Source: an uncultured Mycoplasmatota bacterium (GTDB lineage Bacteria; Bacillota_I; Bacilli_A; RF39; UBA660). Taken from it: 64,000 nucleotides of DNA. Position 1 is the stretch's first letter. Each line of letters starts with the position of its first letter. The stretch is taken from positions 273 to 64,272 of the forward strand of contig CANPJT010000002.1 in the NCBI GenBank assembly GCA_947574255.1. The letters run 5' to 3'. A model generated the notes under the pieces. The model had not been told where the DNA came from, made no database searches, and saw nothing but the letters and a program-made list of their open reading frames with translations. Made by a program: the position numbers and the translations under genes. Shown piece by piece: positions 20,448 through 45,383 of this stretch.

Positions 20448-20485
20448 AAAAGTTAAAAAAACAGATGATTAATAACTAATCATCT
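20448..20485 (-). terminator. Intrinsic terminator closing the T4SS/Tad locus
   Basis: Minus-strand RNA forms AGAUGAUUA-guuau-UAAUCAUCU followed by GUUUUUUUAAC. The stem overlaps the T4CP stop codon. Confidence 0.6.
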
Positions 20486-22656
20486 ATAAAAAAGTCATCA
20501 AAAAATTCATCGTCAGTTATAACATTATCATTAACTATAACACTATCAACATCTACATTTATTTGCGGTTTATCGTTTGTTTTAGAATCTTTTTCTTCCT
20601 TAAAATCTTTTGGTGTTTCTTTTTTTATAATTTTTTTAGAATCAAAGAAAGGCTTTTCTAAAATATCTTTTTTAGGTTGGTTAGAAATACTTTCCATCTT
20701 CTTTTGACGCATTTCTTCTTCATCTAATTCTTTTAGTTTCTTATCAATATCTGCTATCATTTTATCAATATCTTCATTACTCATCGGAGGATTTTTTGAA
20801 AATGGATTATTTAAAGGATTTCCTAATGGATCCGCAAAAGGATTAGCCATATTATTCATATTTTTAAAAAAAGGAGTATTCATTCCTGGAAGATTTGGCA
20901 TGAATGAATTATTATCTTTATTTTTTTCCATATCTTCCATCATTTTTTTTCTTTTTTCTTCTGAAACATAATTTTTTAGATCAAATAGTTTAATTTCTTT
21001 TTTTTCACGTGTTGGTAATTCTGCTGTTTTTCTTTCAATTCCCCAATTTATTTTAAAATCTGGTTCTAATTTAGTTTTAAATGGATCTTTTCTCAAGCGT
21101 TTTATTATTACTTCAAATAATTTCATTCTTTGTAAATCAGTTACAGTTACAAGAGGAGTTGATGCCGTTTTATCTTTATCTTTTGATTTTACTTCTCCAC
21201 ACATTTTACTTATTTCTTCAAGTGCAGCCATTTCGGTACTTATTAAATAAACTAAGTTACCACAATTACCTTTGATTACTTCAGCAACTTCTTTACCATA
21301 AACATCATTTAATTGAGCAAAGTTTTGAATAATAAATGTAAATCTTATATCACGACTACGGGCAGCAGAAACCATAGAATCAACGTCTTTTAAAGGTGGC
21401 ATATTAGCAAATTCATCAAGAATAAAGTTAGTTCTAAATGGCAGTTTGCCACCTGTTTCTTTTGCAACATCTATTAAAGTTTCATAACATTGTTTAATAA
21501 AAATGGTAAGTAAACTATGATAAGTTGTCTTTTCATCATGGATAATCATAAATACAGCTGTTTTTTCTTTACCAATATCACGCATATCAAAATCACTATA
21601 GGCAAGCATTTCACTTAATAATTCTCGAGAAGCAAAAGTTCTTACTTTTTGTTTAAATGTTGATGTAATACCACCTTGAGTATCTTTCGGAGCATTAACT
21701 GTTCCTGAGGCAAAAATATATGCACTTGATTCTGCACCTTTTAAATTAAAATATTCTTTAATATATGTACCAGCAGCAAACCTTTCTTCTCCAACAGAAC
21801 TCATATAATTAATAGAATTCATATTAACTTCTTCTTCTTTAGCATCCATAAATAAACCTAAAGCCAGTCCAGAGAAATAATCAGCAGCACTATTTTCCCA
21901 AAATGGCTCTCCTTTATTATTAGGATCTTTTACGATATTTAAAGCTACGTCATCTAAAAGTTCTGTTGCTTTATCAACATTACCATTCTTATAATAACGA
22001 TAAGGTAGAGTTAATGGATTCCAAGCGTTACCATTAATAGGATCACGAAAGTTTAAAACAATTATTTTGTATCCCTGCTCTTTTAAATATTCTCCACTAT
22101 ATTTATAAATTTCTCCTTTTGGGTCAGTGATAATCATACTTTCGCCTTTTTTAGCAAGTAAATTAACCATTGGTTTTACTATTGTTTCAGTTTTACCTGA
22201 TCCTGTAGAACCAATTACAAGATTATGATATTCTCCATTATCAACCCAGATATCTTTTCCATTATTTATTAGCGGAATTCCAGCAGCTTCCACTTTAGGG
22301 CTAGTGGCATCAACATGCTCAACGTTTTTGTCTTCTTTCATTTCTTTATCTTTAGACCATCTAGAATATCCTTTTTCTTCTTTATCTTTAATATTTAAAC
22401 CTACTCCATGACCTTTTTCTTTATCAAAAATATAGGAAGAGACGGAAGAAAAAATAATGATTAAAGCAGCGAAGAATATACACATTGTAAGTGTTAAATT
22501 GCTACCTATAAAAGCTGGAAATGGATTTAATCCATAAAAACCACCTTCATTTATAAATGAAGTAAAATTTAAAACCGCAATTGCACAAAGATAAAGTAAA
22601 AATATACAAAATATAACAAAAATCATAAAATCTTTAGGTGATATTCTAAATTTCAT
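20476..22656 (-). CDS. Type IV secretion coupling protein (VirD4/TraG/TcpA-like T4CP)
   Basis: Two N-terminal TM helices, Walker A VIGSTGSGKTE and a Walker B-like FILDEFANMP. 726 aa with a low-complexity C-terminal tail. This is the TraG/VirD4 architecture. Confidence 0.85.
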   Translation of the reverse strand: MKFRISPKDFMIFVIFCIFLLYLCAIAVLNFTSFINEGGFYGLNPFPAFIGSNLTLTMCIFFAALIIIFSSVSSYIFDKEKGHGVGLNIKDKEEKGYSRWSKDKEMKEDKNVEHVDATSPKVEAAGIPLINNGKDIWVDNGEYHNLVIGSTGSGKTETIVKPMVNLLAKKGESMIITDPKGEIYKYSGEYLKEQGYKIIVLNFRDPINGNAWNPLTLPYRYYKNGNVDKATELLDDVALNIVKDPNNKGEPFWENSAADYFSGLALGLFMDAKEEEVNMNSINYMSSVGEERFAAGTYIKEYFNLKGAESSAYIFASGTVNAPKDTQGGITSTFKQKVRTFASRELLSEMLAYSDFDMRDIGKEKTAVFMIIHDEKTTYHSLLTIFIKQCYETLIDVAKETGGKLPFRTNFILDEFANMPPLKDVDSMVSAARSRDIRFTFIIQNFAQLNDVYGKEVAEVIKGNCGNLVYLISTEMAALEEISKMCGEVKSKDKDKTASTPLVTVTDLQRMKLFEVIIKRLRKDPFKTKLEPDFKINWGIERKTAELPTREKKEIKLFDLKNYVSEEKRKKMMEDMEKNKDNNSFMPNLPGMNTPFFKNMNNMANPFADPLGNPLNNPFSKNPPMSNEDIDKMIADIDKKLKELDEEEMRQKKMESISNQPKKDILEKPFFDSKKIIKKETPKDFKEEKDSKTNDKPQINVDVDSVIVNDNVITDDEFFDDFFIDD

Positions 22657-22752
22657 TCATCATTCCTCCGTTTATAACATTATTAATTATACTATAATTT
22701 TTTATTTATTCAAAGTTAATTATTTTAGCTGCCTACATTATACTACATGCAA

Positions 22753-22789
22753 ACAAAAAAAAGAATACTTAAATTTAATTTGTATTCTT
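22753..22789 (-). terminator. Intrinsic terminator between the lipoprotein gene and the T4CP gene
   Basis: Minus-strand RNA forms AAGAAUAC-(13 nt)-GUAUUCUU followed by an 8-U run. Confidence 0.6.
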
Positions 22790-22792
22790 GTA

Positions 22793-23476
22793 TTATTTGT
22801 TATTTTTAGTTTTATATACTATTAGTCCAATTAAAATCAAGAAAAAAACGGCTAAAAATATAAATATTATTGGAGATGGAGTTTTAGATCTATTAATTTC
22901 ATTTGCTTCTTTTTCTTTTTTAAATTTGATAATAATTCCACTATTTTCATAATTATCTCTTGTTATATTCCATTCATATGTATTGCCATTAATTTTACTA
23001 GCATTATGAGTAACTACAGGATTGGCAATATTTATTTTGATATTAACTTCATTTAAACTAGGATAATTTTCCATACATAAGAATTTGGAACTAGTTGATA
23101 AAGAAATTGTTTTTTCTTTTTCATCTTTATTTACATAAAAGCTTTCATAACAAGTTTTTATTGAATTATTATCATAAATATTTTCACTATTAAATTTATA
23201 GGATAACTTTTTTAGATAATAGTTGTTATTTAATACTAAATTAGATTTATAGTATTCTACACCTTCTAATTCTTCTGGATATTCTCCTGAATCTAAATCA
23301 CTATAAAGGGCTTTTATTGGCCAAGGATCATTAAATAATGATTGGCTTTCACTATCGTTTTCTGCTTGAATATAAATACTTTCATCAAATTCATTATTTT
23401 CATTGATTGTAAGATTATAATCAACACTACAACCTGTTAGTAAAACTAGTATTAATAATAAACTAAGTTTCTTCAT
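22793..23476 (-). CDS. Lipoprotein with a C-terminal TM anchor (T4SS accessory, unknown role)
   Basis: MKKLSLLLILVLLTGCS (lipobox) and a C-terminal helix (PSPIIFIFLAVFFLILIGLIVY). The track start at 23494 is probably too long; I prefer the Met at 23474-23476. Confidence 0.65.
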   Translation of the reverse strand: MKKLSLLLILVLLTGCSVDYNLTINENNEFDESIYIQAENDSESQSLFNDPWPIKALYSDLDSGEYPEELEGVEYYKSNLVLNNNYYLKKLSYKFNSENIYDNNSIKTCYESFYVNKDEKEKTISLSTSSKFLCMENYPSLNEVNIKINIANPVVTHNASKINGNTYEWNITRDNYENSGIIIKFKKEKEANEINRSKTPSPIIFIFLAVFFLILIGLIVYKTKNNK

Positions 23477-25787
23477 TGGACCCTCCTCTTGCATTACACA
23501 TATTAGTAAAGTCTGAATTTCTAGCAGCTGTACTATAATAATTACTCATAAGTGCAAGTTTTCTATTAGCACTAAATGGTACTTTACTAAATACTACTCC
23601 ATAAGCTTGTCCCTGAGCATGAACTACAGTATAATATTCTTCTTCTTGATGAATAGCTGTTATAATTACAATATGATTAAATCCTCGACTTCCAGGAGTA
23701 ACAATAAAATCGCCAATTTGAGCTCGTTCATCACCTAAATTTGTTATTTCTCCTAAGCTACCCCAACCAGTTGCACCTAAACCTTTCCAAGAAAATCCAA
23801 CATTATAAAGTGCCCAGTTAACGAATCCAGAACAATCTGGTCCTGTTGGACCAAAATCAGGTCCATTTGGTCCCCAAGCTGCAGGAACTCCATATGTACT
23901 TGGTGCAGAACCATGCATTCCACCCCAAATATAATTGAATTTTTTACCATATTTAGCTAATTCGGAAACTGCAGTTGCCGCAACATATGCTACTCCTGTT
24001 CCTGTTCCTTGATGTTTACATCCATAGTCAATTATTTTGTTATTATATTCTTCTAAAGAAGAGTTTTGACTAATAAGAAACGATTCTATAGTTTCATTTA
24101 AAAATGTTGCTCCCTCAGTTGATCCATCCAATCCAGCTCCAGCATCACAATTATCTCCACCTAAATTAAATATAGCCATACGATGATTAATCATCTTTTT
24201 AGCTTGCCAATCAATATAAGCTTGTTTTTCTTCATCAGTTGTTAAAATACATCCTGCTCCACCATTAGAACTTGCACATCTATAACTAGGATTACACCTA
24301 CTATAATTAGGTCCAAAAATATCAGCTAATGTTAAATAATAACATCCACCATCATCAGAGCTTCCAGGATTAGCTAAATATGTACCAATATAAGAATATA
24401 CCTTAGTAAAAGCATCTAAACTTCCTTTATCATGAACATATTGTAGCATTTTTTTGACACCATCTTCAAAGGTATCAAAACACACTCCAGTCAATTGACC
24501 ATTATAAACTCCATAACCATAAAAATTATTACAACTAAGAGTAAAATTATTATCTCTCCAACCATATTCTTTTCTTGCAATAATATAAATTAATTCAGGA
24601 TTGGCTTCCATTTCTTTACCCAAATCATAAATTTTTCCAGCATTTTCAGTAAATATACGTGCTGTTGTTGTATTTACATTGGCTAAATGTGCTGTAACTA
24701 AAGAAATAAATTCTTCTTTACTTAATGGAGTTTCAAAAAAATTTATTTCTGAACAATCTGAATTAGCGGTTCCAGTTTTAATAGTATAGTATTCAATATC
24801 TTTACCATAATAGTATTCTAAAACTCTATATAAATCATATAAAGAATCTTTTTTTTCAAGTAAGTATTTAGAGCCATAAAGACTTAATGATTCTAAATTA
24901 GTAGAATTTAAAACTTTTTTGGTTGGAACATTTTTTTCTTCTACCCAAGAAGCAGGGATAATTTGTCCACCTTCCTTATTTTTATTCATCATGTAATAGA
25001 CACCAATATTTTCTTTTCCATCAACATTTTCTTGAGATTTTTTGATATAAGAAAAAGTATCATATTTGGCATCAATTGCTTTTTCTCCACGAGCTATTAT
25101 TAAGCCACCTGTACTATTTACCGCTTTATTTATATCTTCGTATTTTTCTTCGCTACCAGTTAATTCAGTAAAGTTTTCCGAATTATGTTCTTTTAAAACA
25201 ACACAATTTTCAGGGATAGAAGAAATGATTCTACTACGAGTAGCAATACTCATTAATTCATAAACAACCTTGTTATCTACATCATGAGCATTTTGATTAT
25301 CTTGCCAAATTATTCCTGCAATATATTTGTTTATATCATAATCTTTATAACTAAAACGAGTAGTATCATTTATATCAACATCTTCTGGATTCGTTATAGG
25401 TGAATAACTATTTGATTTTTTATATTCATCAGTTTCTGATACTAAATGTATTCTATTACACTTATTATTTCCAGAATACATTTCAGCTTTTGGAATAGTT
25501 GTTCCACCCATATCAAAATCCATTGCAATAATAATTATCATAAAAATGAGTATTATGACAATAATTATGCCAATTACGAGAAAAGGATGAGTCAATAAAA
25601 AGGCTAAAATTTTCTTCTTTATAAAAGCCTTAACTTTAGCTTTTTTTTTCTCTTCCTCATCTTTTTCTTCATTTAATGAATCATTTGTTTCTGGTTCGTT
25701 TTCAGCTGGTTGTGTTTTTTCTAAATTATTATCAGAACCATTTTCTAATTCTTCTGATTCATTATCTAACTCTTCATCGTAGTTCAT
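23463..25787 (-). CDS. Bifunctional cell-wall hydrolase (muramidase/glucosaminidase-like + NlpC/P60), CwlT/TcpG/PrgK-like
   Basis: Acidic N-terminus and one TM helix. The middle domain reads IIARKEYGWRDNNF...NNFYGYG (glycosidase-like with a catalytic Glu). The C-terminal NlpC/P60 domain reads YIWGGMHG...GPDCSGFVNWALYNVGF...NHIVII. Confidence 0.8.
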   Translation of the reverse strand: MNYDEELDNESEELENGSDNNLEKTQPAENEPETNDSLNEEKDEEEKKKAKVKAFIKKKILAFLLTHPFLVIGIIIVIILIFMIIIIAMDFDMGGTTIPKAEMYSGNNKCNRIHLVSETDEYKKSNSYSPITNPEDVDINDTTRFSYKDYDINKYIAGIIWQDNQNAHDVDNKVVYELMSIATRSRIISSIPENCVVLKEHNSENFTELTGSEEKYEDINKAVNSTGGLIIARGEKAIDAKYDTFSYIKKSQENVDGKENIGVYYMMNKNKEGGQIIPASWVEEKNVPTKKVLNSTNLESLSLYGSKYLLEKKDSLYDLYRVLEYYYGKDIEYYTIKTGTANSDCSEINFFETPLSKEEFISLVTAHLANVNTTTARIFTENAGKIYDLGKEMEANPELIYIIARKEYGWRDNNFTLSCNNFYGYGVYNGQLTGVCFDTFEDGVKKMLQYVHDKGSLDAFTKVYSYIGTYLANPGSSDDGGCYYLTLADIFGPNYSRCNPSYRCASSNGGAGCILTTDEEKQAYIDWQAKKMINHRMAIFNLGGDNCDAGAGLDGSTEGATFLNETIESFLISQNSSLEEYNNKIIDYGCKHQGTGTGVAYVAATAVSELAKYGKKFNYIWGGMHGSAPSTYGVPAAWGPNGPDFGPTGPDCSGFVNWALYNVGFSWKGLGATGWGSLGEITNLGDERAQIGDFIVTPGSRGFNHIVIITAIHQEEEYYTVVHAQGQAYGVVFSKVPFSANRKLALMSNYYSTAARNSDFTNMCNARGGSNEET

Positions 25788-25808: not shown

Positions 25809-27593
25809 CTATAATCCTCCACCTGATCCAAATGAATCTAATTCTTCTTGAGTTACAACAATATTTATTCGCATTCTTCTGTTACCACAAACAAATAGTC
25901 CTTCTCCTTGATTATAATATTTTATACTATCTTTTTCATTATCATTTAAATCAATTAATTTTGATAAATCATCTGTTGCTTGTTTACGAAGTCCCATAAT
26001 TAAATAATAAGAGGCATTATCAAATATTGCTTTACCATGAACTATTACATTAGGTGCAGCAAAATCAGTTGGTTGTTGAGTTATAATGATAGTTCCAGTA
26101 TTGTATTTACGACTACGTCTTTGGATTTGAGCTAAGAATTCAGCGCCAAGTTCATTTTTAGTAGACATAAGAACATGAGCTTCGTCAACACACATAACAG
26201 TATCTATATTTTTATCAAGACAAAGTCCCCAAGCATATTTCAAAATATTAAAAAATAAGGCATTTTTAATATTTTCATCACTATTCATTAGTTCACGAAT
26301 ATTAAAAACAATAAAATCGCTTTGAATATTCAATGTTGTATGACCAGTAAAATAATATCTTAATTCTTTAACAAGTGGTCTAACTTTTAGTTCTAAACGT
26401 TCCATGACATCTCGTTCATGAGTTTGTTCAGGCATCGATAAAATTCGCCCTTTAATAGTTGCATAAACATCATCAAAGGTTGGATAATCACTTGCTTTAA
26501 ATTTAGTAAAGTCAGAGTCATAATCAATTTTATAACGTTTATAAGTATCTTGTACTACTTCACTAAACATGGTTAGTACATCTTCTTCAATTGATGGTGA
26601 GTAATATTTCATGAAAGCTTTTAGTTGTTGTAAAGTTCTAGTTAAAACTGTATAACCTAGACCTTGTTCAATTTCTTCTTCATCAGCATCAACAACAATT
26701 TCAAGAGGATTAATCATTCCAAAATCTCCACCTTTACCAAGATCTAAGAAATCTCCTCCAATACTTCGAGTCATTTCAGCAAGCTCACCTTCAGGATCAA
26801 TACAAATTACTTTATAACCATTTCTTAAATGACTTCTAATTAATAATTTTGCTGCGGTTGATTTTCCACTTCCGCTTGTCCCCAACATAATCATATTAGC
26901 ATTGTTACGATTGTTTTCTTTTTTTATTTTATATAAGAATTGATTAAATAAAACTACTCCTCCAGAGAAATCAACACCAAATAATACACTATTTCCTGGA
27001 TCTTTAATACTATCGAAAATAAAGGGATACATGGCTGCCATCGTAACTGATGGTATTGGTGTTCCTACACGATTTTCAATATCTTGTTTAGGGAATATTG
27101 GAATTATTGATTTTAATGCTTTTTCTTGTTCAAACATTAATGATACACCACGCATACCAAGACCATCTAAATAGTTACGAACTTGCATTTTTTTCATTTC
27201 TAATTCTTCTTTGCTATCAGCAGCTATAAAAACATGCATTTGAAAATCAAAAATACGAGCTTGAGTAGCAGCAAGCATTTGAATAAACTGTTCTAATGAT
27301 TCATAATCTTGTCTAATTCTTTCTTGAATAGTACGATCATTCTCTGTTTGAAATCTTTGCTTTAAATCAGCAATTTCTTTATTTAACATTTTTTGTAATG
27401 TTGAAAATTCAATAGGAATATGTTTTATAGCAATTTTAACACCAGATATATTTGTTAAATTGGCTAAATAGCCTTCTGATATATATTTTGGAAAAGTAAT
27501 TATTGTTAATATTGTACAAAATTTTCCACTAATTACCATTTCCGTTGGTTTAAATTCTATACCTTTTGGGGCTAATTGACTTTTTATGTTCAT
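25809..27593 (-). CDS. VirB4-family T4SS ATPase, C-terminal ~3/4 (ConE/TcpF/PrgJ-like)
   Basis: Walker A MLGTSGSGKST, Walker B VMCVDEAH and IIITQQP. Its start codon overlaps the stop of 27590-28153 in an ATGA arrangement. Confidence 0.85.
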   Translation of the reverse strand: MNIKSQLAPKGIEFKPTEMVISGKFCTILTIITFPKYISEGYLANLTNISGVKIAIKHIPIEFSTLQKMLNKEIADLKQRFQTENDRTIQERIRQDYESLEQFIQMLAATQARIFDFQMHVFIAADSKEELEMKKMQVRNYLDGLGMRGVSLMFEQEKALKSIIPIFPKQDIENRVGTPIPSVTMAAMYPFIFDSIKDPGNSVLFGVDFSGGVVLFNQFLYKIKKENNRNNANMIMLGTSGSGKSTAAKLLIRSHLRNGYKVICIDPEGELAEMTRSIGGDFLDLGKGGDFGMINPLEIVVDADEEEIEQGLGYTVLTRTLQQLKAFMKYYSPSIEEDVLTMFSEVVQDTYKRYKIDYDSDFTKFKASDYPTFDDVYATIKGRILSMPEQTHERDVMERLELKVRPLVKELRYYFTGHTTLNIQSDFIVFNIRELMNSDENIKNALFFNILKYAWGLCLDKNIDTVMCVDEAHVLMSTKNELGAEFLAQIQRRSRKYNTGTIIITQQPTDFAAPNVIVHGKAIFDNASYYLIMGLRKQATDDLSKLIDLNDNEKDSIKYYNQGEGLFVCGNRRMRINIVVTQEELDSFGSGGGL

Positions 27594-28153: not shown

Positions 28154-28454
28154 CGTTTATACACCACCCTTTCCAATAATATCTTTTTCTTCCCATTATG
28201 AATGTTACAATGTTAGTTATTAATTGTAATACATTATGGTAATTTGGAACTGGCATTACTAAGAATGAAGCAATTAGTGCTGGGGATAATATTAATAATA
28301 TTGAGCTAATACTCATTGCAGAATTAAATATAAATAACATTACAAGTGTAAATAAACATCCTGTTGCAAAAATTATTAAATCAATCCATGTAAACCAACC
28401 TAATATTAATTTTGATTTCTTAGAATTAGCGGGAATTAAGTAATTAGTATTCAT
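28143..28454 (-). CDS. VirB3-like/PrgI-family small membrane protein
   Basis: 103 aa with two TM helices, sitting immediately upstream of VirB4. Size, topology and position are as in Gram-positive T4SSs. Confidence 0.6.
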   Translation of the reverse strand: MNTNYLIPANSKKSKLILGWFTWIDLIIFATGCLFTLVMLFIFNSAMSISSILLILSPALIASFLVMPVPNYHNVLQLITNIVTFIMGRKRYYWKGWCINDEK

Positions 28455-34639: not shown

Positions 34640-34681
34640 TCATAAACTTATTTTATAGTTTATTTATTATATTGTCAAGTT

Positions 34682-37556: not shown

Positions 37557-37621
37557 TCCCTCCCTATTTTTTACTTTATTATTATATCATTTTTTATTTA
37601 TTATATCAATAATTTATATTA

Positions 37622-38410
37622 TTATGTTCCCATTAGCATTAATACCGCAAATATTAAGAGAACCATTACTCCAAGACCAGTAGTAACTAACATACTCATG
37701 GTTTTGGATTCCATTTTTTCTAGACGTTGCTTATACTTTAAATCACGAGCTTTTTGAGTCAAGTTTGAAATAGTTTTAGAAAAAGCAAGTAATTGATCTT
37801 GTTTATGTTCTTGTCTACCTAAACTTAAACGATATAGTAAACGCATCATACGCATCGAATCTCTTACAGGATATTGTTTAGCAAAATTAACATATGGATC
37901 GATTTTATCATTACCAGAGTTAATTTCATTAATAAGTTCATGTAATCCTTCTTTAAATATTGCAGGTGCATCATCAATAGATTTTCCAATTGCTACTGGT
38001 ACAGTATAATGTTGAATTAAAATCTCTAAGCTTTTTAAGTAATGTGGTAACATTGCATCTATTTCGTGAAGATGCTTTTTATAATAATTTCTAATATTAA
38101 AATAATCTAATTTAAATATTAATACTCCACCTAATACCGAAAATAAAATTGTAACATAATTTAATTTTGAAATAAAACAGAACATTAATACTACTGCTAC
38201 AATTAAACCATTTCTTATTCGTTTATTAAATAAAGCATCTCCATTTACACCGTCACCATATTTTGCTTTAACATAAAAATCCCAATCTTCTTCTTTTAAC
38301 TTTTTAAAATAGACTTCGTTATCAGCAATAAATTTGTTAGTGTTTATTCTTCCAGTATAGCTCATCATAAATATAATTATTATACCAATTATTAAAATTT
38401 CTATAGTCAT
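37622..38410 (-). CDS. TadC-like platform protein (type II secretion system F-domain family)
   Basis: 262 aa with TadC-like topology: an N-terminal TM, a TM pair at ~aa 68-100, a cytoplasmic helical domain and a C-terminal TM. It has a 1-nt overlap with the upstream TadB-like gene. Confidence 0.55.
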   Translation of the reverse strand: MTIEILIIGIIIIFMMSYTGRINTNKFIADNEVYFKKLKEEDWDFYVKAKYGDGVNGDALFNKRIRNGLIVAVVLMFCFISKLNYVTILFSVLGGVLIFKLDYFNIRNYYKKHLHEIDAMLPHYLKSLEILIQHYTVPVAIGKSIDDAPAIFKEGLHELINEINSGNDKIDPYVNFAKQYPVRDSMRMMRLLYRLSLGRQEHKQDQLLAFSKTISNLTQKARDLKYKQRLEKMESKTMSMLVTTGLGVMVLLIFAVLMLMGT

Positions 38411-39303
38411 TATTCTACCCCCAAATCTTCATTATAATATTTTTCACCTGTCACTAAAAAATAACTATTTATTATGATGATTAAATGGAGAATTAATTGA
38501 ACATACCATATTTCTAATAATTCTATATAACTATCTGTTCCGAGTAAAAATTGCATAGCCATTACAAGTAAAAACAATGCTAAGCCAAATGTAATAAATT
38601 TACGATGAAAGTTTTTTCTATCTACTTGATCACGATAAACTCCTTCTACTAAAGCATCGATATCTTGAGCCATATTTTCTAAAGCTTCACCAGAATCTTT
38701 AGCACCTTCTTTAGTAATTTGAAGAAATAATTGATTCATATTTTTAACCATATAAAATGGATATTTTTCATTAAAAAATTCTACTGACTCATCTATTGTA
38801 CCATTTTGGTAAGACATCTCTATCATGGTTTTTACATCTTGCAAAACTGGATCTTCTAATATTCCAGAGTCTCTAACACCTTCTAGTGATTTAACAAAAC
38901 TTTGAGTAGTTGTAAATTCCATAATAACATTAGTTGTATATATTTGAATTTGTTCAAATATATATTCGCTATATATTTTTTGATATCTTAAATATGTTAA
39001 ATATGGAATAAAAGCTATTGCAACTCCAGCATATATCAGGGTAAAAATTATGTTATAAAAGTAAAGATATGAGATGCCACCTGCAACTGCTCCAAACATA
39101 ATTATTTGAGTTGCATATTCTCTAGTTGAGAAGTCTTGACCTAAACTTTTAACTTTTTCTCTTACTTCTTTATAACTATAAGGTGCATATTTATTATAAA
39201 TATCACTTACTTGAGTAATAAAAAATCGATAAACATTTTTGCCGTTATTTTGGCGGTATGATATCACATATATTGCAATTATAATTAATATAATTAATTC
39301 CAT
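38410..39303 (-). CDS. TadB-like platform protein (type II secretion system F-domain family)
   Basis: 297 aa with an N-terminal TM, a TM pair at ~aa 65-105, a cytoplasmic domain and a C-terminal TM pair. It sits immediately downstream of the secretion ATPase. Confidence 0.55.
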   Translation of the reverse strand: MELIILIIIAIYVISYRQNNGKNVYRFFITQVSDIYNKYAPYSYKEVREKVKSLGQDFSTREYATQIIMFGAVAGGISYLYFYNIIFTLIYAGVAIAFIPYLTYLRYQKIYSEYIFEQIQIYTTNVIMEFTTTQSFVKSLEGVRDSGILEDPVLQDVKTMIEMSYQNGTIDESVEFFNEKYPFYMVKNMNQLFLQITKEGAKDSGEALENMAQDIDALVEGVYRDQVDRKNFHRKFITFGLALFLLVMAMQFLLGTDSYIELLEIWYVQLILHLIIIINSYFLVTGEKYYNEDLGVE

Positions 39304-39327: not shown

Positions 39328-40512
39328 TTATAGGGTTTCTACTGCATTTTTTACAACATTTGGTTGAATTTGAGTTTGTGATTGTTGTATTTTTTGTTCA
39401 GGGGCAGTAATTGTCATATTTAGGGTACTATTAGATTCTTCACTATCTGATCTAAATATGTTATCTGGAAGAGTTACTCCTTGAATTGATAAATAATCTC
39501 TTAAATTTTTAGAGGGATTATTTAAGGTGTATTTGCCATCCAATGTTTTTTTAAAAATGGTATTTGCTTTAGGATTATTGTCTTCATCAACATAAAATTC
39601 ACAGATTTCCATTATTTCTCTTTGAAATCTTCCTAATTCTTTACTCATATACCCTTTAACATATATACCAATTTGTACATAACGATGAATCGTTGTTAAA
39701 AATTGTTCAACATCTAGGTTTGATTCTAACAAACTATACATACGCATTGGTATGGATGAAGCTTTATCAGCATGAATAGTAGATATAATATGGTGTCCAG
39801 AAGATATTGAATTACGTACAGCAAGTACAGCTTCGGCACTACGAACTTCAGATAATAAAATCCAAATAGGATTTTGACGCATACAAGTTACTAATACTTC
39901 AGAATAGGAAGCAATGTTATTGGTTTTCATTGCTACTATATCTCGATGAGGAAATATGCGGTCTAAATGTAATTCTAGAGTATCTTCTATTGTTATTATT
40001 TTCTCATTCTCTTTAGTGGTACTAGCTAAGTATTTAACTAGTTCAGTTTTACCAGAACCAGTTTCTCCACTAACAATAATATTAGCATGACCTTGAACAC
40101 ACGCTAATAGAAAATCAAGTAAATCTTCAGAAACGTATTTTTCATTAATTAATTTTTCTTTATTTAATCTAATTTTAGCAGGAGTTTTACGTATCAAACA
40201 AGCTATTCCATTAGTTGCTATTGATTCATGAACAAAGTTAAGACGAAGTTCAGTTGACTCAGCATCTAAGAAAGGATGAGCCATATTAAACGTTTTTCCC
40301 ATTACATTAGAACATTGAAACGCCAATTTTTCTAATAAAGTATTATTTATTTCTGGTCTTTCAATTTTGAATACACCACGAGAAAGAGTTTTTAACCATA
40401 CTTGTCCACCATTACTATATGAAATATCGGTGACATCATCAAGTTTTAAAAATTCATCAAGAGGACCGAAGTCCAATTGAGAAAATATAGCATCATTATC
40501 CATTAAAGTCAC
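39328..40512 (-). CDS. Type II/IV secretion-family ATPase (CpaF/TadA/VirB11 clade)
   Basis: Walker A VSGETGSGKTE, Asp/Walker B region KIITIEDTLEL, LLSEVRSAEA and His box IISTIHA. The N-terminal region (LDEFLKLDDVTDISYSNGGQVWL) is typical of this family. Confidence 0.85.
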   Translation of the reverse strand: MTLMDNDAIFSQLDFGPLDEFLKLDDVTDISYSNGGQVWLKTLSRGVFKIERPEINNTLLEKLAFQCSNVMGKTFNMAHPFLDAESTELRLNFVHESIATNGIACLIRKTPAKIRLNKEKLINEKYVSEDLLDFLLACVQGHANIIVSGETGSGKTELVKYLASTTKENEKIITIEDTLELHLDRIFPHRDIVAMKTNNIASYSEVLVTCMRQNPIWILLSEVRSAEAVLAVRNSISSGHHIISTIHADKASSIPMRMYSLLESNLDVEQFLTTIHRYVQIGIYVKGYMSKELGRFQREIMEICEFYVDEDNNPKANTIFKKTLDGKYTLNNPSKNLRDYLSIQGVTLPDNIFRSDSEESNSTLNMTITAPEQKIQQSQTQIQPNVVKNAVETL

Positions 40513-40526: not shown

Positions 40527-41372
40527 TTATTCATTATTTACATTATTATTATTGTTGTTGTTATTATTTGTATTAGTTGAAGTTGTTTCATTTTGTGGTA
40601 AAGTTACACTTTGAGCCAAAATGAAATCTCTTATTACATCACTAGATACTAATGTATCACCAGGATTAGCGCTATAAGATGCATTTCTTGGTACTGGAAC
40701 TATTTCAATTGAATGAGATGTTATATATCCAGCTTTCATTAAAAGTAAGTACATATCATCAGGAACAGCAAATAATAATTCTTCTGGTGTACGACTTTCA
40801 ACATTTGTTTCAAAAACATGATTTCCATTACCATCTTTAACAGCTAAAACTTTAATACTTTCAATTAATTTTCCAAACATTACTTTTCCAGTATCATCTA
40901 CACCTTTAAAGTATAAGTCAATATAGTTGTTAGGATAAATTGAATTACCATATGTTGAATGTAAATTAACATTTAAACTATATATAGTATATCCGTCTGG
41001 AATATCGGCAAATGCACTATCTGGCATTTCATTTGATTCAATTACTTGTGATTTATAAAACATACCATTTTCTGGGATAGTTGTTCCATATGATACATAT
41101 TTATTTATTAATTGATTAGCATCAATAATTAAATTATCACTTTCATTTACTACATTACGAGAAACCTCTCTGTAACCTATCATATCACTCGTTATTTGAG
41201 TACGAGATGATATTTCTTCTTTGGCATAAGGAACACTAACTGGGGTTGTTGCTTGTTTTACACGATAATTATATCCAATATATAATACCAAAATACAAAG
41301 TATCACACCTATAATTGTTACAGTGTTCTTATTTCCTAAAAATCTTTTTATTGTTGTTAAAATATTTCCCAT
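40527..41372 (-). CDS. CpaB/RcpC-like pilus assembly protein (TM + SAF-like domain)
   Basis: N-terminal TM anchor. PVSVPYAKEEISSRTQITSDMIGYREVSRNVV resembles a SAF/CpaB N-domain. It sits directly upstream of the ATPase, as in tad loci. The protein ends in a poly-Asn tail. Confidence 0.5.
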   Translation of the reverse strand: MGNILTTIKRFLGNKNTVTIIGVILCILVLYIGYNYRVKQATTPVSVPYAKEEISSRTQITSDMIGYREVSRNVVNESDNLIIDANQLINKYVSYGTTIPENGMFYKSQVIESNEMPDSAFADIPDGYTIYSLNVNLHSTYGNSIYPNNYIDLYFKGVDDTGKVMFGKLIESIKVLAVKDGNGNHVFETNVESRTPEELLFAVPDDMYLLLMKAGYITSHSIEIVPVPRNASYSANPGDTLVSSDVIRDFILAQSVTLPQNETTSTNTNNNNNNNNNVNNE

Positions 41373-41399
41373 TTTTTTCTTCCTCCATTTTATTCATTT

Positions 41400-41819
41400 C
41401 TAATCTTTTTGTGTATCAGCACCAGATAATTCTAATACTCCATCAACTTTATTTACAATATCAAATGATGCAGAATCTCCTGCTACTATAAAACTTCCAC
41501 TTTTTGTTGAGACTTTAACACTTACTTTAGGTGGTGCTTCATAAATATCATAAAAATCTACTTGATATGTATTAAAACTAACATTTTCTGCAAATCTTCT
41601 TAAAAAAGACTCAATAAATTTTTCTCTATCTATTTTTAATTCGCCATATTCACGATAATAACCATAATTAATGGCATCGACCATTGAAGCTTCTGTAACT
41701 TCTTTTATTAAATAGTAATCTTGTGTGTTGTTTGTAGTTATATTAGAGATTAACATCATAATTACTATTATGAAAACACCTAATGTAATCAACCAATAAC
41801 CCCAGTATGATTCTTTCAT
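41400..41819 (-). CDS. Small N-terminally anchored protein, unknown role (pseudopilin-like or VirB8-like size class)
   Basis: 139 aa. MKESYWGYWLITLGVFIIVIMMLISNI is followed by a ~110-aa soluble domain. Confidence 0.5.
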   Translation of the reverse strand: MKESYWGYWLITLGVFIIVIMMLISNITTNNTQDYYLIKEVTEASMVDAINYGYYREYGELKIDREKFIESFLRRFAENVSFNTYQVDFYDIYEAPPKVSVKVSTKSGSFIVAGDSASFDIVNKVDGVLELSGADTQKD

Positions 41820-41838
41820 TAGTTATTTTCCCCCATTT

Positions 41839-44583
41839 CTATTTCCAAGAAGGTCCAGAGCCTTCATTATTTATGGTACCATTCCATAAAGTCCATTTAT
41901 CATTTAATTTAGCATCAAAATATTTATTACTACGATTTTTATCACGTAAGAATTTGCTTGTTCCATAAACATTATTGTATCCTTCTAATTTATGAAATTC
42001 TAAGTCTTCATCAACATAAGTACCAGTACTTTTATTGTAATCTCTTATAGCTTTCATTTGAGTTGGCGTTATTGTAAATGAATATTCTGCTTTTTTATAA
42101 GCATCTTCTTTTGTCACTTCTTCTATAATTCTTTTAGTTTCTTTTCCTTTATCGTTCGTCCAATTATATCCCATTGTACGATTGTTTGGATTTATATCAG
42201 ATAATGATACAGTACGGAAATTATATACTTCATTACCATCAAAGATACAATTTATACAATGAACTTCACATTCTGGACAATAATCATCAGATATAATTTC
42301 ACAAATTTGTTTACCATCTTGTTCTTTTTCTTGGCATCTCCAACCTTCAGGTAAGTTATTGTAATCTTCACATGAACAACTAACTTTACATTCTGGACAA
42401 TCAACTACATAAAAACATACATAACCAATATTTGTAGTTATTCCTTTTCCATTATTAATTGCTTTTACAGCTTCATTTAATCTTCCAGACTCACATCTTC
42501 TATCATTATATTGACCAATTTTTGTGAAATCTAATTTCCAATTATAAACTCCGGTTGGTGTTTTTAAGGCAACTGGCAATATAGCTCCTAAATAAGAATA
42601 ATTTTCTTTGACATTATTTCTATCTTCCACTTTTTCTATAATACCATGAGGATAATTAGATTGAAATTCTTGTTTGTTGTTATATTTAGCAGTTTTTTTC
42701 ATTGAAGCTTTTATAAATTTTACACTACTAGAAATATTACTTTGAGTGTTTCCTTCATTATTACATCCATCATGAACACCATCAACTATACATTCTAAGA
42801 ATGGAATATTTTCTTTGATATTTCCACCACCTGAAACGTCATATTGTTCATTAGTTGAAGTACCAACAGAAACTTTTCTATCTGAGACTTCAGTTTCTCC
42901 TATTTTCTTATAATTAGCTGGATAATCTTCTTCATATTTAAATTTCATTTCTGGATTAAAGCAATATTGTTCACCAGTTTTATTATCTTTAAGTTCAACA
43001 CTTTCCCATTCATTTGCCCAACTATAGCAACTACTAATTTGTTTAAGAATATTATTCAATTCAGATTTTGCTTTATCAAAATTATTTTTTAATGGTGCTA
43101 TATCTCCGAGATCTAATGCTACTACACTTGTTGGTTGTAAATTCAAACTACAAGATCCTGTATTGCTATCACAATTATTAATAGTATATTTATTATAAGT
43201 TCCGCCACCATTTTTAGCTGTATTTGCTTCAGCATAATTATTATAAGCATCTACAACAGCTCTTTGGGCATCTTGAACATCAGTTTTAAATTGGGCTAGA
43301 TCAATTCCTTCTACACCATTGTCTGATGCTCCTGAAATATAACATGATCTAGTTCCTTCTATTTTAGTATCATCTAATTTGAAATATCTACCACTAGTTG
43401 TATATTTAGCTTTTGGTAAAGTCATTTTATAATCTTCTTTACAATATACAGAACAATATTTATTTCCAGCGTCTACTAAACTAGTGTCTTGATATGAATT
43501 TCCACCTTCATCTCTTGATCTAATAACACAAGAATTTATTTTTGTTGGACCATTAATGGTAGCTGTTTTATTTTCAGAATCATCACAATATTCAGGAATA
43601 TCTACTGTAGTTTTGCCATCTGGTCCGCTACAATCATTAGGTCCACCACCATTATGACAATATTTTTCCCAATATTCTCCACCTTCAAGTTCTGATATTT
43701 CTTTGGTGAATGTTTGATTAGGCTTTACTACTTCTGTTCCATTTTCAACAGCTACTATTCCTCTAACCTTATCAGATTTTTTAAAAGCCATTATACGTTG
43801 ATTAGCAATATTATCAGGCGTACACATATATAAATCTGTGCTATCACTTTCATAAAAAGCATTTATTGTATATTTACAAGTTGGTTTTGTAATAGATACA
43901 ATAAGTTCACCATTAGCACCTCGACTGATATTAGAGCATTCATCACATGTAAAATCAACATCTATTGGACTTCCATTAAACGTTTTAACATCATATGTAA
44001 TAACGATACTTTCTTTATTTTGACTAATTTCTATATTCTTTTCATTTAATATTATTTTATTATTTCCTACGCTTTCAACGTTTTCATTTTTTTTGCCAAC
44101 TGAAGCTACTGCATCTTTATATAATTGATAAGCTTCTTTTAAAACATAACTACTTCCAAATAAGCCAGCTGTTCCACCAGATGTTACATATTCGTTAATG
44201 TATCTAGTATGATCCCATCCAGAGCGACTTATTTTTGACCATTGTGCTAAAAAACGTACAGCAAGTTGTTTTACTGCATGACTTTTATCACTATCTATCG
44301 CATATTTAAATGCTTTAGCTGTTGTATAATCATTTAATTGAGTACATGAAACACTAAATGTTCCTCCTCCTACACCATATCCAGCATCAAGACAATATCC
44401 TTCACCATATCCATCTACACTAAAATAATTATCTTTATATCCAGATCCTCCTGGACTTCCATAATGTAAATCAGGTATTATTGAACCACTTGTATATCTA
44501 GCTGTTGCAGCTTTGACATTTTCAACATTTAATATCAATAATCCTAATAATATAATACTTAAAACCTTTACTTTATTTTTCAT
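41839..44583 (-). CDS. Large secreted Cys-rich protein (candidate adhesin or fibre-associated protein)
   Basis: 914 aa. Signal peptide (LLILNVENVKAATA), dozens of Cys residues including CPEC...CPEC clusters (CPECKVSCSCEDY...CPECEVHCINC), and no C-terminal anchor. Its start overlaps the upstream stop (TAATG). Confidence 0.65.
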   Translation of the reverse strand: MKNKVKVLSIILLGLLILNVENVKAATARYTSGSIIPDLHYGSPGGSGYKDNYFSVDGYGEGYCLDAGYGVGGGTFSVSCTQLNDYTTAKAFKYAIDSDKSHAVKQLAVRFLAQWSKISRSGWDHTRYINEYVTSGGTAGLFGSSYVLKEAYQLYKDAVASVGKKNENVESVGNNKIILNEKNIEISQNKESIVITYDVKTFNGSPIDVDFTCDECSNISRGANGELIVSITKPTCKYTINAFYESDSTDLYMCTPDNIANQRIMAFKKSDKVRGIVAVENGTEVVKPNQTFTKEISELEGGEYWEKYCHNGGGPNDCSGPDGKTTVDIPEYCDDSENKTATINGPTKINSCVIRSRDEGGNSYQDTSLVDAGNKYCSVYCKEDYKMTLPKAKYTTSGRYFKLDDTKIEGTRSCYISGASDNGVEGIDLAQFKTDVQDAQRAVVDAYNNYAEANTAKNGGGTYNKYTINNCDSNTGSCSLNLQPTSVVALDLGDIAPLKNNFDKAKSELNNILKQISSCYSWANEWESVELKDNKTGEQYCFNPEMKFKYEEDYPANYKKIGETEVSDRKVSVGTSTNEQYDVSGGGNIKENIPFLECIVDGVHDGCNNEGNTQSNISSSVKFIKASMKKTAKYNNKQEFQSNYPHGIIEKVEDRNNVKENYSYLGAILPVALKTPTGVYNWKLDFTKIGQYNDRRCESGRLNEAVKAINNGKGITTNIGYVCFYVVDCPECKVSCSCEDYNNLPEGWRCQEKEQDGKQICEIISDDYCPECEVHCINCIFDGNEVYNFRTVSLSDINPNNRTMGYNWTNDKGKETKRIIEEVTKEDAYKKAEYSFTITPTQMKAIRDYNKSTGTYVDEDLEFHKLEGYNNVYGTSKFLRDKNRSNKYFDAKLNDKWTLWNGTINNEGSGPSWK

Positions 44584-45323
44584 TATAAAACCCTACTCCT
44601 TCTCTTTTTTATGAGTATTATAGCAGTAGTTAACCCCCCTACTACAATTACACTCCCGGTTATATTTATAACAAGTTTATTTCTTTTATATAATTCTTTT
44701 ATTTTTTCTAAAAAGCCTTTTTTTTCTTCTTGCTCTTCTTTTTGTTTTTTTTCATCTTCTTCACGTAAATCTTCAACTTTATTAATGAATGTATTGTAAT
44801 CAACATTCTCATCTGCGATGAATTCCTGACAATAATAAAATTCTGGATGCTCATTACATATTGCTAATTCTGAATAAGAATTGTACATTGGTGCAATAAA
44901 ATCAATTTTTCTAATTAAATCTCCTGCACAGCTATATTTATTAGCTATTACTTCAATATTATAATTAGTAACTGAAGTAACATCATTATGATCAAATGAA
45001 ATTATTCCATTTTGAGCATCTTTTGAAGTAAAGTTTTTTACTTCTTTAGTTTTATTATTTGTTACTTTTATTGTTATTTCATCAGATACATTCAAAATAT
45101 TGATTTTTAATCCTTTATTATAAGAGTCAAATTCTTCATCGGTTTCAGGATTAATAAGTTTACCTTTATATACTTCTACTACATCATAAGCAACTTTGAC
45201 ATTTGCTGCAATATTATTTAATTCAGCCTGTTCACTGTAACTGCAACTACTTGCTGCAAATACATCAATTGGCCGAAAAAATACACTTAAAGCCAGTATC
45301 ACACTCACTAAACTTTTTTTCAT
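44583..45323 (-). CDS. Secreted protein with a C-terminal TM anchor; first gene of the locus
   Basis: Signal peptide (FFRPIDVFAASS). The C-terminus has a Lys/Glu-rich coil, a TM helix (VINITGSVIVVGGLTTAIILI) and KKRRSR. Confidence 0.6.
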   Translation of the reverse strand: MKKSLVSVILALSVFFRPIDVFAASSCSYSEQAELNNIAANVKVAYDVVEVYKGKLINPETDEEFDSYNKGLKINILNVSDEITIKVTNNKTKEVKNFTSKDAQNGIISFDHNDVTSVTNYNIEVIANKYSCAGDLIRKIDFIAPMYNSYSELAICNEHPEFYYCQEFIADENVDYNTFINKVEDLREEDEKKQKEEQEEKKGFLEKIKELYKRNKLVINITGSVIVVGGLTTAIILIKKRRSRVL

Positions 45324-45354
45324 TTAACTCACCAACCTAAAAATTTATGCTTCG

Positions 45355-45383
45355 ATTATAACATATGAGTTAAGTAATTACAA
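45355..45383 (-). promoter_or_regulatory. Sigma-A-type promoter for the Tad/T4SS locus
   Basis: The minus strand reads TTGTAA-17 nt-TATAAT with an extended -10 TG (TGtTATAAT). It lies ~30 nt upstream of ATG 45323, with a GGTGAG-like RBS between them. Confidence 0.5.

Follow-up and report, generated by a model that had tools for sequence, protein, structure and literature searches.

The closest published precedent for the locus described here is the chromosomal type IV secretion system (T4SS) of Patescibacteria. Derived from the FATA type of mating-pair formation (MPF) apparatus and in most clusters devoid of a relaxase, it combines variable arrays of T4SS_pilin/VirB2-like genes with PrgI, VirB6 and TrsD, a separate VirB4 N-terminal domain encoded beside VirB4; peptidase or lysozyme genes lie downstream of virB4, the coupling protein is often encoded at a remote site, and the system, read by its authors as co-opted, is essential for epibiotic growth in one strain (PMC12102498). 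We analysed a 64,000-nucleotide stretch of DNA (the window; contig CANPJT010000002.1, positions 273 to 64,272 of the forward strand) from an uncultured Mycoplasmatota bacterium. It holds a locus of 23 consecutive open reading frames (ORFs; g01 to g23), all intact and all on the minus strand, running from 45323 down to 20476: a ~25-kb chromosomal block with no relaxase in cis, in which an ATPase/pilin-like module (g01-g12) precedes a T4SS core (g13-g23). At a probability of roughly 0.6, we read this locus as a vertically inherited, chromosomally fixed derivative of the monoderm MPF-FATA apparatus of pLS20-, pMG1- and pBMB67-type plasmids, which has lost its relaxosome and mobility genes and is kept for a host function.

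The plasmid systems are themselves described in part. In the pLS20 family p37 is named a putative VirB11, p36 and p38-47 are of unknown function, and VirB2 and VirB5 homologues are stated to be absent (PMC8557374, Val-Calvo et al. 2021), while a review of Bacillus cereus-group plasmids records a VirB11 homologue on pAW63 with no mention of pili (PMC9673590). By the searchable literature, a pilus-like reading of the ATPase sub-module seems little explored, and we found no report there of a DUF5411/CpaF/VirB4 system in Bacilli.

Collinearity with conjugative plasmids of Bacillota

In tblastn searches against plasmids, the best matches of the ATPase g05 were 'CpaF/VirB11 family' genes of Gram-positive conjugative plasmids. 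Family hidden Markov models (HMMs) were built from the window proteins and their orthologues and run against the proteins of pNARUSE (pLS20-type, a plasmid family of Bacillus subtilis), pZB18 (Enterococcus faecium) and pBMB67 (Bacillus thuringiensis), where they matched exactly the positionally equivalent genes. On pNARUSE these were the counterparts of g03 (5e-5), g05 (p37; 1e-47), g06 (2e-3), g07 (6e-5), g20 (1e-36) and g23 (p48; 6e-59). On pZB18 they were those of g03 (2.5e-3), g05 (8e-51), g07 (3e-4), g18 (5e-4), g20 (1e-31) and g23 (2e-58), together with a 120-aa protein matched by g10 (3.8e-4) and g11 (4.9e-5) and a TrbC/VirB2 protein matched by the g13 family (6e-3). The strongest matches came from pBMB67: g03 (9e-6), g04 to a SAF+RcpC protein (3.2e-34), g05 (1e-37), g06 (3e-11) and g07 (5e-9) to the first and second genes after the ATPase, g18 to a PrgI-family protein (4e-6), g19 to a 227-aa protein (1.7e-24), g20 (2e-89) and g23 (1.6e-81), with weak matches for g02 (7.6e-3), for g12 to an AAA_31 ATPase (6.7e-3) and for g10 to a DUF4320 protein (0.011). 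The gene matched by g03 lies directly upstream of the ATPase gene on all three plasmids, and its pBMB67 product is itself a DUF5411 protein; p36 of pLS20 also matches DUF5411, and p40 weakly matches DUF4320. At the position of g02 stand the thioester adhesin p34 on pLS20, a SpaA-like protein on pZB18 and an 851-aa protein on pBMB67.

Gene order follows the same plan. The pNARUSE operon runs from the thioester adhesin p34 through p35, p36, the ATPase p37, p38 (268 aa) and p39 (246 aa) to p40, the tiny p41-45 and p46-47, and ends with VirD4 (p48), VirB6 (p49), a DUF5592 protein (p50), a 193-aa protein (p51), VirB4 (p52), p53 and the hydrolase p54; immediately after these come the genes for a MobP2 relaxase, a primase and Ssb. 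The pLS20 operon (genes 34-54; PMC8557374) resembles the window in gene set and in near-identical order: small proteins anchored at the N-terminus, p36 among them, are followed after the ATPase by the membrane proteins p38 and p39 and the small pilin-like p40-p45, and p50 is VirB3-like and p51 of the size of a free VirB4 N-domain. It has no CpaB-like or TadZ-position gene, places VirD4 ahead of VirB6, shares low protein identity (~27-32% for the ATPases) and belongs to a plasmid with MobP2, primase, Ssb and regulators. In pBMB67 a first block comprises a MobP3 relaxase, VirD4, TrbL, PrgI, the 227-aa protein and VirB4, and a second, ~6 kb on, a large protein, DUF5411, SAF/RcpC, the AAA_31 ATPase, the T2SSE ATPase, two membrane proteins, a small protein and DUF4320. 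A counterpart of the CpaB-like gene and, by a weak match, one of the TadZ-position gene are present there; the two modules stand ~6 kb apart and in opposite order to the window. The third plasmid, pZB18, has been classed as pMG1-like (PMC13492992). Its layout is pLS20-like, with an annotated TrbC/VirB2 gene and an upstream CPBP protease gene in addition, and in both respects it resembles the window. PLSDB types pZB18 and pBMB67 as MOBP and conjugative, and every plasmid relative carries a relaxase, either annotated as MobP2/MobP3 or typed as MOBP.

Because the plasmid operons are collinear with the locus and are matched by its HMMs, the two halves are best seen as sub-assemblies of one widespread plasmid conjugation apparatus. 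An initial reading made from the sequence alone (the sequence-only reading) had proposed a chimera between an independent Tad pilus and a pilus-less T4SS. This idea does not survive, as the layout already exists on pLS20-type, pMG1-like and pBMB67 plasmids. What is unusual is the chromosomal, relaxase-less and conserved setting, and not the combination of modules.

The plasmids also carry some very small proteins of note. Two identical 47-aa proteins of pLS20 (MLDQNADRMYWVIGAVLVVGALIG...; L090 14568-14881 and 15403-15642, related loci being designated by L numbers) have the look of Flp-sized mini-pilins, with a 50-aa homologue on pZB18 (L092 15011-15163), and p45 of pLS20 is a two-helix, VirB2-like hairpin.

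Chromosomal setting, descent and selection

No relaxase, integrase, recombinase, Rep or Par was matched by any window ORF in Pfam or NCBIfam, and no homologue turned up in the window or in ~88 related loci when the relaxase, primase and integrase of pLS20 and the relaxase of pBMB67 served as tblastn queries, in agreement with what the sequence-only reading had stated about the 64 kb. The window has no tRNA gene, and in the search for an att-like repeat the longest sequence shared by both borders was 13 bp, within the range of shuffled sequence. The flanks are housekeeping and other ordinary genes, much as had been proposed: rhodanese, a VTT-domain protein and RmuC on the VirD4 side, and on the g01 side FtsW, TyrS, CotZ and genes for a CPBP protease and a thioredoxin-like protein, with BacA/UppP and TrpS also among the housekeeping genes flanking the locus. 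Composition agrees on both sides of the borders, with a GC content of ~25% throughout the window, 0.24-0.31 in the locus and 0.21-0.28 outside, which is again as first described.

A VirB6-like profile found at least 181 relatives in a species-representative genome collection. We retrieved 80 of them, all from metagenome bins; the label is in most cases uncultured Bacilli or 'Tenericutes', and Candidatus Ventrenecus and Candidatus Onthocola are among the names. In a metagenome protein collection g05 and g06 have thousands of relatives each, with 120 listed for each at ≥75% identity; one of the proteins found in these searches is annotated 'Mycoplasma sp. CAG:776'. The VirD4-rhodanese-VTT-RmuC junction is common to many related loci. 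Across 29 relatives, identity to the window in VirD4 (r = 0.96) and VirB4 (r = 0.93) tracks identity in the flanking rhodanese, which argues for vertical descent. Conserved context and co-divergence with the flank likewise support the earlier proposal that the block is fixed in the chromosome. The two halves co-vary as well (VirB4 vs g12, r = 0.96; VirB4 vs ATPase, r = 0.91).

Six of the loci come from bins labelled Muribaculaceae, Eubacteriaceae or Melainabacteria (L016, L046, L049, L078, L042 and L084); because of their gene content and identity, these bins are probably mislabelled or contaminated. A recent insertion of the block was considered and rejected, on the flank co-divergence and on the lack of att, tRNA and integrase in the searches above.

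To gauge selection, we compared the window with three relatives whose synonymous sites are near saturation (dS, synonymous divergence, 0.7-1.5; dN/dS, the ratio of nonsynonymous to synonymous divergence). dN/dS was 0.02-0.05 for VirB4, 0.04-0.08 for g06 and g07 (g06 alone 0.04-0.05), 0.04-0.09 for g12, 0.08-0.10 for the ATPase and 0.09-0.12 for VirD4, compared to 0.16-0.25 for the neighbouring rhodanese. Values for the pilin-like, VirB2-like and VirB6 proteins were 0.13-0.66 (VirB6 0.4-0.5; surface parts 0.2-0.5). The cytoplasmic core is therefore more constrained than a housekeeping neighbour, and the surface parts are fast-evolving. Both halves are functional, given dN/dS values of 0.02-0.12, and they plausibly form one apparatus, since both are found on the same conjugative plasmids of three families and their identities co-vary; the single functional unit that had been proposed from the sequence is thus plausible. 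Species with ~90% identical VirB4 share only 25-50% identity in g02, in the ectodomains of g15 and g16 and in the last 320 aa of VirB6.

The architecture of the locus varies among relatives. Counting loci with enough flank, the ATPase/pilin module and VirD4 both lie beside the T4SS core in 18 and neither does in 11; VirD4 alone is found in 8, some of them due to large insertions that push the module out of range, and the ATPase module alone in 2. In loci with neither, 5-8 VirB2-domain genes precede VirB6-VirB3-VirB4, one example lying between spoIVA/pyk and ftsK. Conversely, in very prevalent human-gut relatives (L085-L089) a solitary ATPase module sits between an aminoacyl-tRNA synthetase gene and addBA, in the order g01-g02-DUF5411-CpaB-ATPase-g06-g07, followed by a VirB2-like g13 homologue and with no g08-g12. 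That this VirB2-like gene stays with the ATPase module links the halves. In L012 and L031 housekeeping genes interrupt the block at the g13|g14 boundary. Co-occurrence of the two halves across relatives had been named as a check. They lie together, with VirD4, in the 18 loci; other lineages have them at what seem to be separate loci, which indicates that the parts can be uncoupled.

Two relatives with no upstream ATPase module carry, within the 10 kb before the core, a large serine-recombinase-like gene (L045 2882-4456 and L054 1851-3458; N-terminus ...YIRLSQEDEDK...) along with amidase-like and SleB-like genes, in what looks like a prophage or other insertion.

Gene products and transcription signals

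By their family matches, the predicted products of the distal half include the VirB4, VirD4, VirB6-like, VirB3-like and wall-hydrolase parts of a monoderm MPF-FATA T4SS of the kind found on pLS20, pGO1 and pAW63-like plasmids (all coordinates given for g01-g23 and for the signals around them are on the minus strand). The VirD4/TraG coupling protein named in the sequence-only reading is g23 (20476..22656), with matches to T4SS-DNA_transf (2.6e-53) and TraG-D_C (1.2e-23) and 62-88% identity in 35 relatives. Its C-terminal ~230 aa form a long, Lys/Asp/Asn-rich, low-complexity, Pro-containing tail. The body of the VirB4 ATPase is g20 (25809..27593; P-loop_TraG 1.8e-13, AAA_10), whose best NCBIfam model is NF045975, the VirB4 of Mycoplasma integrative and conjugative elements (ICEs), at 9.6e-107; CD1110 matches at 7e-54. 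It covers residues 294-891 of NF045975, is 76-98% identical over 73 relatives and keeps an ORF of 593-607 aa. Residues 99-276 of the same model align to g19 (27590..28153; 7e-14), a free-standing, TraC-like VirB4 N-terminal domain in the role of TrsD, which is a separate gene in all 72 relatives (183-206 aa) and whose orthologues carry PF26593 (TraC-like). The VirB3/PrgI-like g18 (28143..28454; PrgI 2.9e-3, TcpE 7.9e-3) aligns to residues 2-96 of NF045975, a VirB3-VirB4 fusion (1.6e-5). The split VirB4 had thus been correctly identified, yet its split is not damage, because every relative (at least 70) and the plasmids have the same one. We also rejected genetic-code reassignment as its explanation, since the relatives share the division and translation table 11 gives every ORF uninterrupted.

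The channel protein would be the VirB6-like g17 (28477..30531), variable in its C-terminal half, which matches the pLS20_p028 (1.2e-8) and Mbov_0396 (3.8e-8) families of NCBIfam, with TrbL matched in two homologues. In a Foldseek search of 350,000 chains with an AlphaFold2 (AF2) model of mean confidence (pLDDT) 73, the four top matches were all R388 TrwI/VirB6, at a probability of 0.94 and a target TM-score of 0.42-0.51, with E values (0.3-1.6) that are not significant. The cell-wall hydrolase g21 (23463..25787), in the VirB1/CwlT role, has C-terminal CHAP and NlpC_P60 matches at ~1.9e-4. Scores for g17, g18 and g21 all fall under curated cut-offs yet are mutually consistent, and they lend weak, family-consistent support to the VirB6-like and VirB3-like assignments made earlier; as for the CwlT-like muramidase plus NlpC/P60 protein of the sequence-only reading, a CHAP/NlpC hydrolase is weakly matched and the muramidase domain is not. 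Hydrolase domains are swapped between species at this one position, where the window and L004 carry CHAP/NlpC_P60 and where L003 (5786-7882) and L005 (14755-16815) carry Peptidase_M23 together with Phage_lysozyme2.

Three VirB2-like proteins had been proposed, and they find support of a weaker kind. The two-helix T4SS pilin g13 (34232..34639; T4SS_pilin 4.9e-4) has 17 orthologues, 13 of which match T4SS_pilin (best 1.9e-6), and one further orthologue matches CagC. By BLASTP, g15 (31814..32944), a secreted protein with a variable Cys-rich ectodomain and a C-terminal VirB2-like hairpin, is similar to g13 (6e-24; 40% identity over 91 aa), and so is g16 (30550..31638; 4e-8), a second ectodomain-VirB2-like fusion. 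Relatives have 1-8 genes of the g15 type per locus. The bitopic 379-aa protein g14 (33041..34180) has no credible family match and is conserved in full-type loci; it is a possible VirB8/TcpC analogue. No protein gave a family match to a VirB8-like (NTF2-fold) subunit, for which g14 and g22 are candidates by topology only. The latter (22793..23494) is a predicted lipoprotein with a lipobox, a C-terminal membrane anchor and a sub-threshold LppM match.

The ATPase of the promoter-proximal half, g05 (39328..40512), matches T2SSE (2.3e-26) and belongs to the CpaF/VirB11 family of hexameric secretion ATPases, which bears out the CpaF/TadA-family assignment at that level. It can be placed no finer, because NCBIfam favours VirB11 (1.3e-31, ahead of the 'TadA family conjugal-transfer-associated ATPase' at 1.2e-28) while the PDB marginally favours CpaF (1.3e-17) over VirB11 (1.4e-15). 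Directly upstream lie g04 (40527..41372), CpaB/RcpC-like as had been suggested (RcpC 2.1e-4, TIGR03177 2.7e-5, and RcpC matched by 7 of 8 orthologues in a Pfam scan; weak, family-consistent support), and g03 (41400..41819), a DUF5411 protein (Pfam 1.7e-57) with an N-terminal membrane helix and a globular domain. The C-terminus of g04 is of low complexity, with a run of nine Asn. The module opens with two secreted proteins: g01 (44583..45323; 246 aa) has a C-terminal membrane anchor and a sub-threshold DUF3244 match only, and its homologues hold the equivalent position in L085-L089, and g02 (41839..44583; 914 aa) is a Cys-rich surface protein with no Pfam match, a candidate adhesin.

The remainder of this module resembles a Tad system less than had been thought. 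At the TadB and TadC positions, g06 (38410..39303) and g07 (37622..38410) are polytopic membrane proteins, g06 with no match in Pfam, NCBIfam or the PDB and g07 with no family match; they agree with TadB and TadC by position and topology only. No T2SSF signal was present in either, in 11 remote homologues or in the plasmid equivalents. A g06 profile searched against 1.84 billion representative proteins gave 294 matches, mostly fragments, of which the 11 full-length remote ones carried no T2SSF. Paralogy between g06 and g07, in the style of TadB and TadC, was not detected (hhalign probability 0.6%), and the AF2 model of g06, made from a shallow alignment of 75-100% identity, was too poor to judge (pLDDT 52; Foldseek matches were noise). 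In PDB sequence searches, profiles of g06, g07, g12 and g13, and g04 alone, gave nothing meaningful. The earlier assignment of TadB and TadC as T2SSF proteins is thus without profile or structure support.

The same applies to the Flp-like pilins and TadE-type pseudopilins. The small pilin-like g08 (37073..37348) has an MKEATGELN leader, kept in orthologues, a hydrophobic helix and a Cys-containing tail; g09 (36784..37023; dN/dS 0.19-0.55) is a second such protein; g10 (36198..36767) is minor-pilin-like, with an MREAIGG leader, a membrane helix and no TadE match; and g11 (35701..36189) is its paralogue. Neither these four proteins nor ~40 orthologues matched Flp_Fap or TadE in Pfam. At the TadZ position, g12 (34682..35686) has no family match in the window protein, with CbiA matched by 2 of 12 orthologues. 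A GxKNxTxHxGxTTL motif is conserved in which the P-loop lysine is lacking, and the sequence suggests that g12 is probably a degenerate ParA/MinD-like NTPase; TadZ similarity is therefore a hint from the CbiA matches, set against the degenerate P-loop and the lack of a PDB match. No A24 (TadV/CpaA) prepilin peptidase was found in the 64-kb window, and one could be encoded elsewhere in the genome. Overall, the Tad label is justified in part only, by the ATPase at CpaF/VirB11-family level and by the weakly supported CpaB-like protein, while T2SSF, Flp, TadE and TadV were not found in the searches above.

The gene count of the sequence-only reading, 23 co-directional ORFs plus one pilin remnant, is confirmed by the ORF listing and by a 5'-truncated pilin-like copy in the g07-g08 gap (about 37409..37545), whose translation is ...AVAAFFYAFVWPAIKTGLGNNTC...N*, with start codon and leader absent. 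The overlapping junctions it described are also real: 1 nt at g01/g02 and g06/g07, 4 nt at g19/g20, 11 nt at g18/g19 and 32 nt at g21/g22. A promoter-like sequence stands ahead of g01 exactly as had been described (TTGTAA-17-TGtTATAAT, 45355..45383; 10/12 matches plus TG), although it carries no statistical meaning: such matches are not enriched in this AT-rich window (128 observed vs 131 expected from shuffled sequence), and position is consequently the sole argument for it. An internal site before the pilin-like genes (TTGATA-17-TGaTATAAT, 37581..37609; 11/12 plus TG) scores above it, and another lies in the 42-bp g12-g13 gap just ahead of g13 (TTGACA-17-TAAAAT, 34650..34678; 11/12). One operon transcribed from one promoter is no more than plausible, given the non-significant promoter match and internal sites that are equal or better. 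At the other end, the terminator-like hairpin that had been read over the last stop codon, that of g23, is present (20448..20485; GATGATTA-GTTAT-TAATCATC, 8 bp, plus a T-run), and would make a weak terminator since its G-C pairs number only 2.

Divergent from the locus lie genes for a thioredoxin-like protein and a CPBP/CAAX intramembrane protease (45437..46614, plus strand; Pfam). The thioredoxin-like (PedC-like), CPBP/CAAX and metallophosphoesterase genes (45437-47503, plus strand) point away from the locus and are conserved in the relative L086 (1222-3278); a CPBP protease is also found upstream of the homologous module on pZB18 (L092 9641-10087), and a thioredoxin-like gene after g13 in L031 (2131-2559). 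These neighbours may be accessory, serving disulfides in the Cys-rich surface proteins or leader processing without a prepilin peptidase. At 55258-57090, 10 kb upstream of the locus, the window encodes a hybrid histidine kinase fused to a receiver domain. The window further encodes a sortase-domain protein (3371-4912) and a CotZ-like spore-coat protein (48128-48577), and a relative encodes SpoIVA (L001 61-1539). These genes show that the bins of 25% GC that go under 'Tenericutes' or 'Mycoplasma sp. CAG' represent walled bacteria, probably spore-forming ones.

Mechanism, alternatives and known systems

Each step of the mechanism we propose is one that we infer from homology. The hydrolase g21 would open the peptidoglycan, and VirB6 (g17), VirB3 (g18) and the two-piece VirB4 (g19 and g20) would provide membrane channel and motor, into which VirD4 (g23) would pass the substrate. 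The ATPase g05, with g06/g07, the CpaB-like g04, the DUF5411 protein g03 and the pilin-like g08-g11, might build a short filament or pseudopilus across the thick wall, and the VirB2-like g13, g15 and g16, the fast-evolving Cys-rich ectodomains and the surface protein g02 would contact the target cell. The filament is put forward conditionally because g06/g07 are without T2SSF homology and the small proteins match no pilin family. As VirD4 is kept and there is no relaxase in cis, the substrate could be DNA processed by a relaxase encoded elsewhere, DNA exchanged independently of a relaxase, or proteins. On the whole we infer a fibre built by the ATPase module, parts that act as one contact-and-transfer apparatus, and a system that serves its host; takeover for a host-cell function is suggested by vertical inheritance and strong selection in a locus with no relaxase.

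Several observations weigh against this reading. The relatives are all metagenome bins, with no cultured organism among them, and since ~20 kb was seen per related genome, a relaxase or oriT could lie elsewhere. The window has no prepilin peptidase, T2SSF homology is not detectable in g06/g07, and none of the pilin-like proteins matches a pilin family. Promoter-like sites inside the block would allow more than one transcript. Some lineages keep the ATPase and VirB6-VirB4 modules at separate loci; neither VirD4 nor the hydrolase is then a neighbour, and no g08-g12 turned up in the vicinity of the one module or the other. Gut Clostridia have DUF5411 + CpaF operons with no reported T4SS (PMC9523054).

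The last two points would fit two independent neighbouring machines, one an adhesive, Tad-like pilus used to colonise the gut and the other a T4SS, as would the housekeeping genes between the modules in L031 and L012 and the promoter-like site before g13. We nevertheless find this quite improbable: both modules occur together on three families of conjugative plasmids, in pLS20 and pZB18 with their genes interleaved; where the modules are apart, the ATPase module still has its VirB2-like gene; and identities co-vary between the halves (r = 0.96 for VirB4 vs g12 and 0.91 vs the ATPase). Working conjugation is also an unlikely explanation, if a less strained one. Here relaxase and oriT would lie elsewhere, and the locus would be a chromosome-borne 'fertility' apparatus that moves small mobilisable elements, or the chromosome itself, from cell to cell. 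A precedent is the transfer of chromosomal DNA by the T4SS of Mycoplasma ICEs, and the Mycoplasma ICE model is the best NCBIfam match of VirB4 (9.6e-107); moreover, VirD4 is intact and under purifying selection (dN/dS ~0.1), and all plasmid relatives are conjugative. Yet the plasmid relaxase genes lie only a few genes away from the T4SS, and searches of the 64 kb and of ±10 kb in ~88 relatives found none; several lineages also have no VirD4 beside VirB4.

A decaying remnant of an integrated conjugative element would explain the missing relaxase and integrase and the one truncated pilin copy, but is scarcely credible for a locus with 23/23 ORFs intact, ORF lengths conserved in at least 70 species, dN/dS of 0.02-0.12 at dS ~0.7-1.5 and a conserved chromosomal context. 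Low dN/dS and ORF integrity exclude decay and dispose of the alternative that had been offered from the sequence alone, a decayed ICE that landed beside a tad locus.

A chromosomally fixed apparatus kept for its host thus remains our preferred reading. Extended to the whole clade, it becomes tentative: in uncultured gut Bacilli of very low GC content, a conjugation apparatus of plasmid origin may have become a core contact-and-transfer machine that benefits its host. It would be the Gram-positive equivalent of the essential Patescibacteria T4SS, and could be related to it or even be its source. Its uses might include DNA exchange independent of a relaxase, or the acquisition of material from neighbouring cells. 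If true, this would be the second large bacterial group, after Patescibacteria, with a monoderm conjugation machine that is chromosome-fixed, relaxase-stripped and strongly selected, and it would make roles of Gram-positive T4SSs beyond conjugation testable in organisms abundant in human and animal guts. On this tentative reading, the locus also suggests that pLS20/pMG1/pAW63-type systems assemble a type-IV-filament-like fibre along with VirB2-like pilins, contrary to the usual 'pilus-less' view. It draws attention to a poorly characterised sub-module (the CpaF/VirB11 ATPase and its membrane partners, DUF5411, and the small pilin-like and VirB2-like proteins) of clinically relevant plasmids such as the pMG1/pHTbeta-like vancomycin-resistance plasmids and pLS20. 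Such plasmids are efficient at forming mating pairs in liquid, and the ATPase sub-module may explain how they do it.

The other described systems each share part of the locus. Mycoplasma ICEs are mobile elements that are not known to carry a CpaF-like module. Their fused VirB3-VirB4 is matched collinearly by g18, g19 and g20 (residues 2-96, 99-276 and 294-891), g17 matches their membrane protein Mbov_0396, and NF045975 is the best NCBIfam model for the window VirB4; scores nevertheless stay under the family cut-offs (358 vs 590 bits) and the window protein is in three pieces. Tad/Flp (type IVc) systems resemble the window in the CpaF-like ATPase followed by two membrane proteins, in the CpaB/RcpC-like protein, perhaps in a ParA-like product at the TadZ position, and in small proteins that combine a short leader with a hydrophobic helix. 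They differ from it in that the window has no T2SSF, Flp_Fap or TadE match, no G/XXXXEY motif and no TadV peptidase. An uncharacterised 'predicted secretion operon' of gut Clostridia combines DUF5411, CpaF and PilC (Miller et al. 2022, PMC9523054). Its 8-9 genes share DUF5411, a CpaF-type ATPase and a large surface protein with the window, but no T4SS genes are reported and its platform protein, unlike g06/g07, is annotated as PilC/GspF.

Two further groups are conceptual precedents. In the IncI R64 thin pilus and in PAPI-1, both diderm, a type IV filament aids T4SS contact, and in ComB of H. pylori and the archaeal Ced/Ted systems, diderm and archaeal respectively, a relaxase-less T4SS is reused for DNA uptake. 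ComB is not known to have a coupling protein, whereas the window locus keeps VirD4. Both R64 and Ced are cited in the Patescibacteria study (PMC12102498). It is the Patescibacteria T4SS that, compared by description, comes closest to the T4SS half of the window: it is chromosomal, without relaxase, with VirB2-like arrays and a separate VirB4 N-domain, and the diversifying surface parts seen here resemble its reported pilin arrays. It belongs to another phylum, and no CpaF/VirB11 module is reported there, whereas in loci of the window type VirD4 and the hydrolase are adjacent in many species and the CpaF/VirB11 module is attached.

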